Source: a virus
UHGV virus genome: UHGV-0123060
Direction: 5' to 3' (one strand)
Length of the DNA stretch: 14,403 nt
The notes beneath the pieces were generated by a model that was not told the origin of the DNA, ran no database searches, and was given only the letters and a program-made list of their open reading frames with translations. Within the stretch, counting starts at the first letter, position 1. Each line of letters begins with the position of its first letter. Made by a program: the position numbers and the translations under genes. This document shows, piece by piece, positions 8,705 to 14,312 of this stretch.

Positions 8705-9478
8705 TCAGGCGAGATAGGGATGAGGTGTCGGGAATACGATTTCTTTGTAGCAACGGCAGTTAGGTAACTCCCCGGCGTGACCGGTCATGCCGTCAAGCGT
8801 TGGAGGTCGGCCCCATTCGACAAACTTCCCTTCCATCTCTCGATGAGAATGCCGGACGTCGCCATCTTCGGCTGTACGCCAGATATAGCCATTCGAGCCG
8901 ATTGACAGCGCACGCGCCTGATCCAGTGCACCGGTTGCGCGCCCAAGCTCAGTCCGGGCGATAAGGTTCGCTCGTGAGCGTGACACGTCACCGGAAGCAG
9001 CTATCTCTTTCGCGAATGGCTCAGCGCGGCCACCAGTCACAACAGCCTCGATGGCTTTGTTCTGAATGTCATACACGCGATCGGCAGCCTCAAGAGGCAG
9101 CGATTTGATGTACTTAATTTGCTCGGCGACGATGGATTTCATCACCTGGCCTACCGGGGCGCGGTCAACCATGTTACGCAGCTCTGCGCTGATGTTCCGG
9201 CTGTGCTGACGCCACTGCTTTTCATTCTGGCGCGCTATGTCTGCGGTGAAGTTCTCAGCAACCTTCGTCGCCCAGGGGGTGATGATTTCGCTGTAGCGCT
9301 CCAGCGCATCCATGATTTCGGTGACGCTATCGTTTGAACCATCGTAGCGCCCATTTACGATATCCCCGACCGCCCGCGCTATCTGCCGTAGGCTCGTTCG
9401 ATATCGGATCTCCGCCTGGCGACTCTGGCGGTTTGTCGCCAAGTTCGCCGATGCCTGGCGGCGCTTCGTCTTCGGCAT
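8705..9478 (-). CDS. Head morphogenesis protein, phage Mu F-like / SPP1 gp7 family
   Basis: C-terminal region carries the family motifs as I recall them (WRTAEDGDVRHSHREMEGK ... LPNCRCY). Located directly after the portal gene. First ATG at 9478 lies 152 nt inside the portal ORF, so the true start may be downstream. Confidence 0.8.
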   Translation of the reverse strand: MPKTKRRQASANLATNRQSRQAEIRYRTSLRQIARAVGDIVNGRYDGSNDSVTEIMDALERYSEIITPWATKVAENFTADIARQNEKQWRQHSRNISAELRNMVDRAPVGQVMKSIVAEQIKYIKSLPLEAADRVYDIQNKAIEAVVTGGRAEPFAKEIAASGDVSRSRANLIARTELGRATGALDQARALSIGSNGYIWRTAEDGDVRHSHREMEGKFVEWGRPPTLDGMTGHAGELPNCRCYKEIVFPTPHPYLA

Positions 9479-10796
9479 TCTCGATATCCTCGTCGGTAAT
9501 GGATGCTCCGATACCAGTGACGTCAGAGTTTTCGCGCAGGTCGGTCATTGCCGCCTTACGCGTCATCAATCCGTCGCCCAGCGCGGTGCTGATCGCGGTG
9601 GTGGTGTTTACGGCCACCGTTGAGCGGTCAACGTCAGACATTTGCCATAGCGGGTTAAACTCAAACGTGAAATCGTCCGGCAGCGGCTTGCCGAGTTCAG
9701 AGCGGTGCATAATGTCCAGTATCCGGCGCATCGGCAGCCGTAAGCGTCGCTCCTGCAATGAACTCACCCGGTCGTAATAGTTGGCGAGGTCAGCATCACC
9801 AGTAGAGAAGCCTTTCGGGGATTGACCGAACAGGCGTACCAGCGGGATGCCGACGGCACCGCTGATCTGCTCAGCGAACTGCGAAAGAATGTCATCCAGA
9901 CCGCTGAAGCTGTACTGGTGGGTTTCGAAGGTATCCTTGGCATCCATTAGCGTCATGCCTTCATTGCTCTGAAACTGGCGAATCAGATCAATGTTTTTCA
10001 GCAGCGCCTCGAATGCCGGGCCTCCCAGCGCAATAAGCTCACGAAGTTTTTCCACCTTGTAGGTCCGCAGATGCGCTTTGTAGACCAGCTGCGCCGCGCC
10101 GACAGTGGCGCTGTCGAACGCAGTAAGCCGATCCCAGATACGCTCTACAACCGACATTCCCCATTCGTTTTCGGTCATCTTCTGCTGGAATGGCAGCGTG
10201 ACGCCATCGAAGCGAATCAGGCGGCTGTGATGGATGCGCCAAGACGGGATGCCCGTAGCAGTGGTCACCACGTCGTAAAACTCAGGTTTGCCGAGATCCG
10301 GCCCCATCTCTTTAATGCGGCGGGTCAGCACCGGATTAATCATCCAGCGGTCGAGCGGGAGAATTCCCTTAAACTTGCCTTCTCCAATGGTTTCGAGCCG
10401 CAGCGGGGTCATTGGTGCCTGCCCCTCAATCATGATGAAGCCAACCGCGCCGCCGTAGAGACGCGACCATTTCAGCACGTCGTTCAGCGCATCCCAGATC
10501 TGCAACTCATCCAGCTGCGCTTCCAGGGTGCCACGGTCTTTGGCGTCAATCTCCGAAGTGATGCGAATGCCTTTCCGGGTCATATCGTCCGGGATAGCGT
10601 CGACCGCTTCGCCGATAACCCACGATCCGCGATATGACCATTCCACCAGCATGCGGTTGCGGCTGGTGAAGTTCGCCCGGTAGGTCGATGCTGAGTGCTG
10701 GTTAGGCGTCTGCATCCCCACGCGGGCGACAAAGTTCTCATAGCCATCAGCGGTGGCCTGCGCCGTTCGCTGAGAGGCTTGCTTGTTTCGTGCCAT
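9327..10796 (-). CDS. Portal protein, putative
   Basis: 489-aa ORF whose ATG (10796-10794) overlaps the terminase stop (TGATG). Size and position between large terminase and Mu-F-like gene; acidic Pro/Gly-rich disordered C-terminal tail. Confidence 0.7.
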   Translation of the reverse strand: MARNKQASQRTAQATADGYENFVARVGMQTPNQHSASTYRANFTSRNRMLVEWSYRGSWVIGEAVDAIPDDMTRKGIRITSEIDAKDRGTLEAQLDELQIWDALNDVLKWSRLYGGAVGFIMIEGQAPMTPLRLETIGEGKFKGILPLDRWMINPVLTRRIKEMGPDLGKPEFYDVVTTATGIPSWRIHHSRLIRFDGVTLPFQQKMTENEWGMSVVERIWDRLTAFDSATVGAAQLVYKAHLRTYKVEKLRELIALGGPAFEALLKNIDLIRQFQSNEGMTLMDAKDTFETHQYSFSGLDDILSQFAEQISGAVGIPLVRLFGQSPKGFSTGDADLANYYDRVSSLQERRLRLPMRRILDIMHRSELGKPLPDDFTFEFNPLWQMSDVDRSTVAVNTTTAISTALGDGLMTRKAAMTDLRENSDVTGIGASITDEDIENAEDEAPPGIGELGDKPPESPGGDPISNEPTADSAGGRGYRKWALRWFKR

Positions 10797-12418
10797 CAGG
10801 CCTGTCTCCCTAGCAGCTCCCAGATGTTCAGGGCTGAATTCATTGGCGCGTAGCTGATCATCACCGAGTCGGCGAGGTTCGGCGACTTGGTGCCGTCAGG
10901 CTGTTTATCAACAACGATTTTCCCCACGCCGTTAATGGAGTAGGTCGGCTGCGACAGCTCGATGATGAGTTTGTCTTTGTTCGCCATAGTGCCACTGATT
11001 GAGATGATTTCGTCCGGGTTGTAAGCCATCTTTTCAACCACGGCACGATAGGTGTTCTGGAAAAGCTTGCGTAACCGCCACCAGCTCTGGGCCTTGGCGT
11101 TAGCGAAAAAGTCCTTATTCAGGCGGGCGGCCTGTCCGTTGTCGCCGCGCACCGCTTCATCGTCCGGATCAAACACCGCGCCGCTACCGCGAAACGGTGT
11201 GGCGAGTATTGACGGTCGGCGCGCAGCGTTGCGCAGTTCGTTGATGGCGCGCGCATCGCCGCGAACGCCAGCGCCCAGGCCGTCCTCGTCGAAGCGAAAC
11301 TCTTCGAGGTTGTCCTGTTCGCAAAAGCCGAAGACCTTCTCAACAGATTGGTAAATGTCGCTGCCCACGCCGGACCATTCCCGCACGTTCTCCAGGAGGA
11401 AACCGTGACGGGTCGAAAAGGCATTTTTGTCCCGGCCTTCGTCGGCGACGTCCATCGCGCCCAGTCGCTTGCCCGTTGGCTGAATACCAAGTTTGATATG
11501 CGCGTCGACGGCAGCCTGTACCCAGTCGGACGGGATCAGGACGCCTTCCGCAGATGCGCTGTAGTTCAGGTCAAGTTCCTGCGCCACCACCACCGGATTG
11601 TCGATTTTCTCGCACTCCCTGCGATACCACTCTTCATCCTTGCGCGGGTCATCTCGCCAGTGGAACGTGAATACTGGTATCTTTCCGCCGTGGCGCTTCT
11701 GCGCGAACGGGTTCGCCATGCCATTAACCGAGCTCAGGTCAATACGGCAACGGGTGGTTTGCGACAGCGCCGCGTCAATCAGCAGAGGACGCTGGAGGAA
11801 TGCAGCCTCATCCACCAGGTAGAGGGTGGTACGGTCACCACGACCGATATTGTCGCCAGCCTCGCCTTTGATGACCGCGCCAGTATCGGGAAACTCAACG
11901 CGCATGTATGGCGCGTGCTTCTTCTCGTCCCACGAACCGCGAAACTCGACGGGCAGCGTTTCCACGAACTTGCGCGCCTTCCAGAACAGCGCCTTCGGGT
12001 CTCCGGTGCTGTCGACGTATTCCTCTTTACGGGAGCCGAAGCCGATGACCATTTCTTTGTTGAAGAGGCAGAGCGAACAGGCCAGCCCGATCGCCGTCCA
12101 GCTGAGCCCCATTTCGCGGCTCTTTTCGGTGATGCCGTTCTCCAGTCGTTCGCGCCGCTCCATGATCCAGTGAATCCACTCTTCCTGTTTCGGGAACAGC
12201 AGAAAAGGGATGGTGACCGGCAGGCCATAATCGATGTTACGCGGGTCAGTAGTCATCCCCCAGTCGATGATGAACTGTGCCGGGTTGGTGCGGTAAAACT
12301 GCTTTAGCGCTGGCAGCATTTCAGGGTTCTGGCGAATGCGCTGTAAGCGCTCCATCCGCCATTCAAAAACCATCTGGTAATCAGGGTTTCTGAAATCGAA
12401 TTCAAACGGAAGAGGCAT
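10796..12418 (-). CDS. Terminase large subunit
   Basis: About 541 aa; P-loop-like [12 protein letters not shown] and Walker-B-like [11 protein letters not shown] in the N-terminal ATPase part, acidic nuclease-type C-terminal half. ORF track start 12424 is a GTG overlapping the upstream stop; ATG at 12418 preceded by GGGTGA is the more likely start. Confidence 0.85.
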
Positions 12419-12420
12419 GA

Positions 12421-12894
12421 TCACCCCATCATCTTGCGGTAAATCTCTGCGGCCTGATCTGCGGTGAGGTTGGTCGTCTCGGTCTTGATCGGGCCGCCAT
12501 CCTTGCCAGTGCTCTCAACCTTCAGCTTATTGGTGTATGCATCGCCAACCTCTTTCGCGGCCTGCTCAATGAGCTGCGCCGTCAGGGAGAAGTTTTTCAT
12601 CCCCTCGGTTTTGGTTGCCATACGGTCAAGCACGCGGAGGCGATAGGATTTGTTCGCAATCGGAATGTCGCTGGTTTCGGTCAGGAATCGGTCGCGCGTC
12701 GCGTGGAACATCTCGATCCATTTTTTGGCGAGCGTCTTACCGCTGGCCTTCGTGGGGTCGTGAGATTCAGCCTGCTGGCGGGTGATCTTGATCCCGAATT
12801 CTTTTTGGACAGCCTCGACCACCTGCGATGGCGTGTCATAGCACGCAAGCGACTGAATGATGAAGGCTTTCACATCAGGTTTTAATGCAGCCAT
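12421..12894 (-). CDS. Terminase small subunit, putative
   Basis: 157-aa ORF immediately upstream of and coupled to the large terminase; SD GGATGGTGA before the ATG at 12894. Called by position and size. Confidence 0.55.
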
Positions 12895-12925: not shown

Positions 12926-13546
12926 TTAAGCCAGTCGCAGCATGCACGTCCCGCACGCTCTGGCAATATCGAGATGAGCAACCTCCGCTGGCTGATTCGC
13001 CGCATCAATCATTTCCTGCACGTCCCGGCTTGCACCGTAACGGCGAACCACGCCCACAAACTCTTCCACGTCATGACCGCGCAGCTTCAGCTTTGGCTGC
13101 CCTTCCTGCGTGAACTTCGGCGCGCCAAATTCATCTGTCGCCTGGCAGATGTGATAAAGCTCGTGCTCTATCAGCGCGCAGAATTCCAGATCGGAACATT
13201 GCGAGCAGTAATCGGCGGCCAGCGTGATGATGAACTGCGGCACCCTGCCGAACCACTCATACATCTGCTGCTCCATCCGCGCTTTCTGCCAGCCTCCAGC
13301 CCGCATTGCCACTTCTTCCGCCTGCCCCAGCACGGAACGCCCTTTCTTCTCGAAAGCGTTCGACGCCCAGAGAAAGCACAGATCCGCTTCAAGCAAATGC
13401 TGGTGATCAGGGTTGTAGAGGTCACCCTCATCGCTCAGGATGTGCTGATTCAGCCACTCGCCAACGTCATTAGCGGGCATAATGCTGATGTACGGCTTCG
13501 GGTCAGGTGGCATCGTAAAATGCGCTGGTGGGTGTGGTCTGTTCAT
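12926..13546 (-). CDS. Hypothetical Cys/His-rich protein with HExxH motif (candidate zinc metalloprotein/metallopeptidase)
   Basis: 206-aa ORF, ATG at 13546. Contains YCSQCSDLEFCALIEHELYHICQ (CxxC, C, HExxH, C) plus a C-terminal ACGTC; Pro-rich N-terminus. Sits between the lysis cassette and terminase genes. Confidence 0.6.
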   Translation of the reverse strand: MNRPHPPAHFTMPPDPKPYISIMPANDVGEWLNQHILSDEGDLYNPDHQHLLEADLCFLWASNAFEKKGRSVLGQAEEVAMRAGGWQKARMEQQMYEWFGRVPQFIITLAADYCSQCSDLEFCALIEHELYHICQATDEFGAPKFTQEGQPKLKLRGHDVEEFVGVVRRYGASRDVQEMIDAANQPAEVAHLDIARACGTCMLRLA

Positions 13547-13622
13547 GAATAATTCCAGTGCTCCATTATCAAGCCCACCAGCAGATGGGCTTTGTAATGG
13601 AAAGCCGTTGTGAAAGTGGCTC

Positions 13623-13643
13623 TAAAAAACCACAGATTTGTGG
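13623..13643 (-). terminator. Candidate intrinsic terminator (weak): CCACA-AAUC-UGUGG followed by U6 on the minus strand
   Basis: 5-bp stem (extendable by flanking A-U pairs) immediately after the 33-codon ORF stop, followed by six U (plus-strand A-run 13624-13629). Confidence 0.45.
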
Positions 13644-13745
13644 TTATGCGGCCAAGCGGTGCTGCTCTTCGATAAGTGGCTGGCGGTGATTACGCTCGAA
13701 CATGCCGCGCAGCACTTCTTTGCGTTGTTCGAAGTCCCACCCCAT
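13644..13745 (-). CDS. Very short ORF (33 aa) between two terminator hairpins; coding status uncertain
   Basis: ATG at 13745, stop TAA 13646-13644; product MGWDFEQRKEVLRGMFERNHRQPLIEEQHRLAA; no clear SD. Could be non-coding transcribed spacer. Confidence 0.2.
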   Translation of the reverse strand: MGWDFEQRKEVLRGMFERNHRQPLIEEQHRLAA

Positions 13746-13794
13746 GCTGATGAATACCGTGTTGGCGCGCTGTAGCTCGGTGAAATTCGGGCAT

Positions 13795-13818
13795 AAAAAA
13801 GCCCGACCGAAGTCAGGC
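13795..13818 (-). terminator. Intrinsic (rho-independent) terminator after Rz/Rz1
   Basis: Minus-strand RNA GCCUGAC-UUCG-GUCGGGC (7-bp stem including one G-U pair, UUCG tetraloop) followed directly by UUUUUU, starting 20 nt after the Rz stop. Confidence 0.7.
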
Positions 13819-13838
13819 TCTGTTATTTGGGTGACGAA

Positions 13839-14312
13839 TCACTTAAGACACTGCTCTTTGATGTAGTCCTGCATGCCGCGAATCATTTTGTCAGCGGTTG
13901 CGATTCCGTCCCGGTGATCGAAATAATTCCGTCGAGCGTCTGGAGTAAGTTCGGGGGCTCCTGCATCATCCACGCCGGTGGAGGAGGTGGCTTTTGGCAC
14001 TCCAGGGCAGGTTGCAGCGATGCGCAGCCGTTTAGCGCCAGAATCGACATCACGACGCAAATCGTTAATGGTCTTTTTAGCATCAGCCAGTTCTCCGGTG
14101 TATTTGGCATCCAGTGCAGCGACATCACGCTGGCGGGTCTGCATGTCTTTAATGGTGGCGGTCGCCAGGAGGAGTTTCTCAGTGGCCTTATCGCGCTGGT
14201 CTCTGTAAGTGATGGCGTTGTCGCGGTAGTGGTTCACGAAGAAAGCCAGTGCGCCGATTAACGCCAGCACCAGCAACTGCAGCCAGTAACGCTTAACCAG
14301 TGCGCTAATCAT
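13839..14312 (-). CDS. Rz: Rz inner-membrane spanin (i-spanin)
   Basis: 157 aa; N-terminal TM segment ([15 protein letters not shown]) then [10 protein letters not shown] ... [19 protein letters not shown], matching the lambda Rz core from memory; coiled-coil periplasmic domain. ATG at 14312 overlaps the upstream stop (ATGA). Confidence 0.9.
13883..14083 (-). CDS. Rz1: Rz1 outer-membrane spanin (o-spanin) lipoprotein, embedded in Rz in the +1 frame
   Basis: Entirely inside the Rz ORF in another frame. Signal peptide [19 protein letters not shown] followed by Cys (lipobox-like LNGC), then [16 protein letters not shown] and DGIIS, matching lambda Rz1 as I recall it. Start placed at the Met preceding the signal peptide; track ORF extends to 14128. 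Confidence 0.85.

Follow-up and report, generated by a model that had tools for sequence, protein, structure and literature searches.

The window analyzed here, a 14,403-nucleotide (nt) stretch of DNA from the virus genome UHGV-0123060, carries on its minus strand the late operon of an Enterobacteriaceae prophage. The gene under study is an ATG-to-stop open reading frame of 206 amino acids (12926 to 13546, minus strand) that encodes a putative phage metallopeptidase of Pfam family PF18894, referred to below as MP. The gene order is Rz/Rz1, a gene-free gap of 292 nt, MP, a DUF2280 protein, the large terminase subunit (TerL), and the portal protein, followed by a MuF-like protein, a DUF2213 protein, a cement protein, the major capsid protein, and neck and tail proteins. 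MP has the same orientation as its neighbors, including the upstream lysis genes, and a prior sequence-only reading of this DNA had correctly placed it between the lysis cassette (Rz/Rz1, upstream) and the terminase genes (DUF2280 and TerL, downstream). The DUF2280 gene (12421 to 12894, minus strand; 157 amino acids; PF10045, E = 6e-50), which encodes a probable small terminase (TerS), starts 31 nt past the MP stop codon and overlaps the start of TerL by 4 nt. TerL itself (10796 to 12424, minus strand; 542 amino acids) is recognized by PHROG 2 alone ("terminase large subunit," E = 2.5e-32) and has no Pfam match at an E value of 0.1 or better. Farther downstream, the longest MuF open reading frame (257 amino acids, 8705 to 9478) overlaps the portal gene (9327 to 10796) by 152 nt; its true start is probably internal, since sibling genomes call a product of 202 amino acids.

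The lysis cassette ends with an Rz i-spanin gene (13839 to 14312, minus strand; PF03245, E = 1.4e-39; PHROG 13), in which a putative Rz1 o-spanin with an LNGC lipobox and a proline-rich stretch is embedded (within 13883 to 14128, minus strand). The predicted reading frames confirm a two-component spanin of the embedded type, with the Rz1 frame inside Rz. Between Rz and MP lies a dead 3' remnant of a Phage_pRha gene (13563 to 13783, minus strand) that consists of about 46 codons and a downstream hairpin and matches the 3' terminal part of Rha-family genes in P22-like phages at 88 to 98% identity. Salmonella phage Oslo and two sibling prophages (L257 and L258) have an intact rha gene (172 amino acids) between Rz and the MP gene, and, judging from these alignments, the window phage has lost the 5' part of rha. 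The terminator-like hairpin with its T-run (13624 to 13645; folding energy of −14.8 kcal/mol, z = −2.1) is inside the remnant and is located upstream of the MP gene, not downstream. A scan for the sigma-70 consensus only found no promoter-like sites on the minus strand between 12300 and 14403, and all Rfam matches around the MP gene were below threshold. A match resembling the isrJ small RNA (13797 to 13867, minus strand) spans the Rz stop codon; at 27 bits against a gathering cutoff of 37 (E = 0.023), it is probably due to chance.

The earlier reading had described MP as uncharacterized and had proposed an HMM search to check this. That search assigned residues 30 to 184 to positions 2 to 134 of the 134-position profile of PF18894, "Putative phage metallopeptidase" (PhageMetallopep), with an E value of 2e-43 and 148.1 bits against a cutoff of 23.7; PHROG 513 was matched at E = 1.6e-97, and all 66 of the aligned MP homologs also match PF18894. 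Matches of this strength are far beyond chance and confirm that MP is a real gene. In the sense of "unclassified," the description therefore does not hold, as the family is named in Pfam and RefSeq already uses "putative metallopeptidase" for near-identical prophage copies in Escherichia coli (about 97% DNA identity). These copies adjoin a gene for a "DUF2280 domain-containing protein" and are carried by 50 of 5426 complete E. coli genomes. The closest phage genome is that of Citrobacter phage Omnitron (99.5% amino acid identity), and the exact MP protein sequence was found in 519 blocks of a public assembly collection. Homologs fall into 3501 clusters in a search of a 90%-identity protein collection and into 4240 clusters, at an E value of 1e-3 or better, in a profile search of 50%-identity representatives. 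NCBIfam and PADLOC gave no match for MP, PDB sequence searches (E up to 10), whether by the MP sequence alone or by a profile, gave no useful match, and our literature search found no functional study of or experiment on PF18894/PHROG 513 proteins or DUF2280. By its sequence, MP is thus an object that was already known, an ordinary, full-length member of PF18894/PHROG 513 that does not differ from the long form of the family with its C-terminal CxxC tail. It is nevertheless worth recording that PF18894 is a large family without a published function that is found in model and clinically relevant phages, its carriers including Pseudomonas aeruginosa phage JBD44 and prophages of Acinetobacter baumannii, Klebsiella, Enterobacter, and E. 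coli.

The HExxH motif that had drawn attention to the gene is encoded at 13151 to 13165 (minus strand; H128-E129-L-Y-H132, reverse complement CAC GAG CTT TAT CAC). In an alignment of 66 sequences with 24 to 86% identity, L125, H128, E129, H132, H158, D159, E162, F163, Y170, and G171 are invariant. A larger alignment of 386 homologs gave nearly the same result for the motif (H128 in 385 sequences, E129 in 382, and H132 in 382) and defined a second conserved block, G157-H158-D159-V-E161-E162-F163 (codons at 13058 to 13078, minus strand), in which H158 is conserved in 383 of the 386 sequences, D159 in 375, E161 in 371, E162 in 357, and F163 in 374. An AlphaFold2 model of MP (pLDDT of 89.1, pTM of 0.81) places H128 and E129 at the end of a predicted helix (residues 119 to 130), H132 just past the helix end, and H158/D159 at the start of another predicted helix (residues 160 to 170). 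The model has the zincin layout, with a mixed beta-sheet, a backing helix, an active-site helix bearing HExxH, and then a third-ligand helix. Its best structural matches are peptidases: projannalysin (score of 8.5), selecase (7.6), the SprT domain of Spartan (7.0), proabylysin (6.9), the Acel_2062 zincin (6.4), BepA (6.3), BlaR1 (6.0), and Wss1 (5.4); the zincin-like RNase YbeY scored 6.5. Foldseek failed to pick up the zincin relationship, and among viral models it matched nothing beyond the MP family itself and gp231 of Bacillus phage G.

On the basis of the model, the HExxH of MP is a real zincin active-site motif, and MP is very probably a zincin metallohydrolase of PF18894. Of the two options raised by the sequence-only reading, a metallopeptidase active site is thus upheld by the PF18894 match, the invariant HExxH, and the modeled fold. 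The reading had also suggested a structure prediction to look for a zincin-type site with a downstream acidic ligand; the model agrees with a zincin fold, and H158 and D159, 26 to 27 residues past H132, lie at the right sequence distance, with one or the other being the likely third metal ligand. We infer that Zn2+ would be held by H128, H132, and H158 (or possibly D159) and that E129 would activate the water that cuts the peptide bond. MP can accordingly be pictured as a small, acidic, presumably cytoplasmic zinc-dependent enzyme with a predicted minimal zincin (minigluzincin/SprT-like) fold and predicted peptidase activity. Its calculated pI is 5.1 (family median of 5.3), with 30 acidic and 18 basic residues; the DUF2280 protein is basic (pI of 9.1). 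The minigluzincins projannalysin (4jix), proabylysin (4jiu), and selecase (4qhf) share no sequence similarity with MP that was detectable in the PDB searches. They are archaeal proteins of about 105 amino acids without a terminase link, whereas MP is a phage protein with 55 extra N-terminal residues, a C-terminal helix, and a cysteine tail.

The sequence-only reading had noted a cluster of cysteines around HExxH and a C-terminal CxxC. Both are present, although the spacing between C117 and C123 is five residues rather than the six that had been given: the layout is C114-x2-C117-x5-C123-x4-H128-E-x-x-H132-x-C134, plus C198-x2-C201, for a total of seven cysteines. The codons for C114, C117, and C123 (13178 to 13207, minus strand) lie just before those of the active-site helix, and those for C198-G-T-C201 (12944 to 12955, minus strand) form the C-terminal tail, which was modeled at a pLDDT of only about 50. 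Both groups are subfamily specific. Among the 386 homologs, C114 is present in 148 (38%), C117 in 172 (45%), C123 in 207 (54%), C198 in 229 (59%), and C201 in 216 (56%); C134 is sporadic (about 12 of 386). C123 co-occurs with the C-terminal CxxC tail, and the commonest pattern of the long form, among 50%-identity representatives, is C123 with C198 and C201, sometimes joined by C114, C117, or both. A short form of about 170 amino acids has neither the C-terminal tail nor any of these cysteines. The presence of the CxxC tail tracks a downstream small-terminase gene, and in our alignments C123, C198, and C201, in some members together with C114 and C117, are confined to the TerS-linked subfamily. 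The extra cysteines would most likely bring the tail close to the active-site helix, through either a second metal site or a cysteine switch; the tail might in this way regulate or anchor MP. A precedent for such latency is Wss1, which is described as resembling the minigluzincins and as being kept latent via a cysteine switch (PMC4559962).

Some long-form MPs carry an N-terminal extension of 50 to 100 amino acids with a helix-turn-helix (HTH) of the pattern Y-S/T-E-x-x-K...A-L...G-V-P...L-x-x-W (P0300, P0320, P0274, P0271, P0299, P0332, and about eight more; loci L170 and L172). These extensions give weak matches to HTH_8 and HTH_Tnp_1, and that of P0300 matches the small-terminase family phrog_4044 at E = 4e-5. 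For two fused forms the gene neighborhood was inspected, and both have DUF2280 and TerL downstream; DUF2280 follows immediately in one and lies 1 kb off, across an inserted gene, in the other. The idea that the HTH of the fused forms is itself a DUF2280 domain, which would make them a Rosetta-stone fusion, was rejected at an hhalign probability of 0.6%.

The HTH extensions also bear on the name under which the family has circulated. PHROG 513 is labeled "transposase," as are the GenBank records for ZF40 gp39, JBD44 gp16, phiPSA1, ENT47670, and TRS1, and one GenBank record of the family is labeled "HicA toxin." The ZF40 genome paper took the transposase label at face value and speculated on Mu-like transposition (PMC3391216). 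No transposase or DDE domain was found in MP or in the 66 alignment members, and from these domain searches the label is a misannotation. It probably stems from the HTH_Tnp_1-like HTH of the fused long forms, a weak match (E of about 0.03 to 0.05) at the N terminus of 2 of the 10 fused long forms scanned. The present assignment corrects this propagated annotation.

A role as a noncatalytic zinc-ribbon protein or as a transposase could draw on the seven cysteines with their two CxxC pairs in the first case and on the labels of PHROG 513 and of the ZF40, JBD44, and phiPSA1 records in the second. The zinc ribbon was also the other option of the sequence-only reading. As a family-wide feature it is excluded because the cysteines (C114, C117, C123, C198, and C201) are absent from much of the family, each being present in 38 to 59% of homologs, and because the short form has none, while the set of HExxH, H158, and D159 is invariant. 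With the zincin fold added to this conservation pattern and to the lack of a transposase or DDE domain, both versions are effectively refuted, and we regard a protein of either kind as scarcely credible.

The genomic neighborhood of the family was then compared across phages and prophages, as the earlier reading had recommended, and the conservation was found to be strong. In 80 of 80 IMG/VR loci recruited with MP, a DUF2280 gene starts about 30 to 40 nt past the MP stop codon. Recruitment with DUF2280 gave 78 loci, all 78 of which have MP immediately upstream. TerL, portal, and MuF were too divergent for detection by tblastn in most of the 80 IMG/VR loci. An HMM survey of 254 loci counted MPs with and without the cysteine tail and the DUF2280 genes downstream of them. 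DUF2280 was found downstream of tail-bearing MP in 236 of 237 assessable loci, and no more than 60 nt separate the two genes in 235 of the 239 loci with both; 12 tail-less MPs lacked DUF2280 and 3 had it. In the single tail-bearing exception (L241, 5390 to 5731), the next gene encodes a small-terminase-like protein of 108 amino acids with the motif GGKRPGAGRKPG, followed by TerL; this apparently represents another small-terminase family that fills the position of DUF2280. The pairing is kept in Pectobacterium phage ZF40, Pseudomonas phage JBD44, Acinetobacter phage Acba_13, a Vibrio phage, and remote metagenomic members with Terminase_6, P22-type portals, or HK97-type heads. It is also kept in Salmonella phage Oslo, where the MP locus leaves no room before the end of the linear record and DUF2280 lies at the record's other end. 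Counts by genus in the phage database are equal for MP and DUF2280 (Acinetobacter, 62/62; Pseudomonas, 44/44; Vibrio, 8/8; Burkholderia, 7/7). Because many of the loci are closely related, all of these counts overstate independence. The possibility that the linkage is due to a conserved cis element in the spacer between MP and terS found no support: only the ribosome-binding region and the start codon are conserved there.

The assignment of DUF2280 as TerS is probable. It is suggested by the gene position, by the label "terminase small subunit" that some DUF2280 homologs carry in GenBank, and by a low-confidence AlphaFold model (pLDDT of 63) that has three short helices at the N terminus, long helices in the center, and a helix at the C terminus, an arrangement compatible with a TerS architecture.

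The junctions on either side of the MP-terS pair are fluid. Siblings with identical MP carry different lysis cassettes or an intact rha upstream, and the block of similarity to E. coli ends about 50 nt upstream of the MP start codon. Insertions of 0.2 to 1.1 kb lie between terS and terL in about 20 of 78 siblings (L109, L111, L115, L120, L128, L131, L138, L142, L143, L147, L148, and L159 to L167), and their cargo, some of it on the opposite strand, includes a 208-amino-acid secreted protein, a YegP/DUF1508-like protein, and small HEAT-repeat proteins. Between MP and terS there are none (0 of 78). The insertion hot spots are thus upstream of MP and between terS and terL, and the moron slot is the terS-terL junction, not the junction upstream of terS. 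The sequence-only reading had considered MP the only sizeable noncanonical gene of the operon, sitting at a moron-prone junction. The comparison argues otherwise, as the packaging block invariably opens with MP, which directly precedes the small terminase in essentially every locus with this form of the protein. A moron would be patchily present among similar phages, and the presence of MP in all 78 loci recruited with DUF2280 led us to reject this possibility. Because MP is the fixed, terS-adjacent first gene of the block while the flanking junctions are fluid, we consider with good confidence that it is a core gene of the packaging module rather than a moron. The pairing is retained while upstream genes, and even the TerL, portal, and capsid types, are exchanged. 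In its main form, MP is locked to terS more tightly than terS is to terL, and the remaining interest of the gene lies in this tight coupling.

The same data weigh on the possibility that MP is a host-directed, anti-defense, or anti-hijacker protease whose adjacency to terS reflects only a conserved module boundary. It might, for instance, cleave a protein of host immunity or one by which a satellite captures TerS. Counter-defense genes are usually patchy and variable, whereas no sibling locus lacks MP, which is 45 to 75% identical from Acinetobacter to Enterobacteriaceae. No similarity to PADLOC entries was found, and the insertions seen at the neighboring junctions in the 78 siblings spare the one between MP and terS. 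We therefore regard this explanation as unlikely. The related possibility that MP is a repressor-cleaving peptidase of the ImmA/IrrE (M78) type was rejected, as an M78 profile match combined with a neighboring repressor gene was not found.

The partnership of MP and DUF2280 is not universal for either family, because DUF2280 occurs alone in Salinibacter phages and the short form of MP occurs without DUF2280. DUF2280 without a PF18894 peptidase was found in 181 Salinibacter phages (e.g., Salinibacter phage 4_20, locus L168, 2932 to 3980), in which a gene for a multipass membrane protein lies upstream of DUF2280 and a terminase-sized open reading frame of 540 amino acids lies downstream. The short form of MP is located among small genes, directly after a VRR_NUC gene in one phage group, and in the three short-form loci with a terminase in view, a lambda-GpA-type gene lies 2 to 4 kb downstream.

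The position of MP invites comparison with the HNH endonucleases encoded beside terminase genes (HK97 gp74 type), which occupy the same slot immediately upstream of terS and, like MP by prediction, bind metal. The fold and motif are different: MP has no beta-beta-alpha-metal H-N-H site and matches no HNH or other nuclease family, in agreement with the earlier view that it does not fit the HNH pattern. The predicted chemistry of MP is hydrolysis of peptide bonds, whereas that of the HNH proteins is directed at phosphodiester bonds. It is conceivable that MP is instead a metal-dependent nuclease, working like YbeY or as an analog of these HNH proteins, that helps to cut the packaging site. The motif of YbeY is H-x3-H-x5-H without the glutamate of HExxH, and that glutamate, a signature of peptidase chemistry, is present in 382 of 386 MP homologs. 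The protein is also acidic, and its best structural matches are with peptidases, all of which makes a nuclease very improbable.

The best reading of these results, toward which we lean with modest confidence, is that MP is a PF18894 zinc peptidase, encoded by the first gene of the packaging block, that works with the small terminase. MP would be expressed late, would remain in the cytoplasm, and would be coupled to the initiation of headful packaging, working with the small terminase as DNA packaging starts. Its target, which it could process, activate, or clear, may be TerS itself or a protein bound to TerS or to the packaging substrate. That MP acts on or with TerS in packaging is a plausible but tentative part of this reading; adjacency of the genes does not by itself establish a mechanism. 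We know of no protease that takes part in packaging initiation.

A more specific version of this packaging-linked idea is that MP is a DNA-associated protease similar to SprT or Wss1 that strips covalently or tightly bound proteins off replicated phage DNA, allowing the terminase to thread it; recruitment to DNA would occur via TerS or, in the fused forms, via the protein's own HTH. Unlike the SprT/Spartan and Wss1 (WLM) proteases of DNA-protein cross-links, MP is acidic rather than basic. No SprT zinc-binding subdomain and no basic DNA-binding region or subdomain was seen in MP, which falls below the threshold of the Pfam SprT-like family (PF10263), and only 1 of the 66 alignment members touches that family, at E = 0.092. 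This version is in our judgment decidedly unlikely.

The broadest form of the favored packaging role goes further and is, as a whole, rather doubtful. It proposes that the long, CxxC-tailed PF18894 peptidase is an unrecognized accessory subunit or regulator of headful packaging in thousands of temperate phages of Proteobacteria, namely, a latent (cysteine-switch) zinc protease that is recruited by TerS or, in the fused forms, through an HTH of its own and whose cleavage of TerS or of a protein on the DNA is required before packaging can begin. If this were true, MP would parallel the HNH proteins that help cos terminases, but as a protease.

Two observations at individual loci may be added. 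In one sibling prophage (L256, 16304 to 17533), the head module breaks off past the DUF2213 gene, and a tyrosine integrase gene and unrelated genes come next, which suggests either that the prophage is truncated or that there is a nested insertion. At one of the loci with an HTH-extended MP (L170, about 2297 to 2341), three tandem 15-bp repeats (GGACCACC[G/A]TTTAGT) cover the 3' end of the MP gene and the spacer before DUF2280; these could be a candidate TerS-binding (pac) element.
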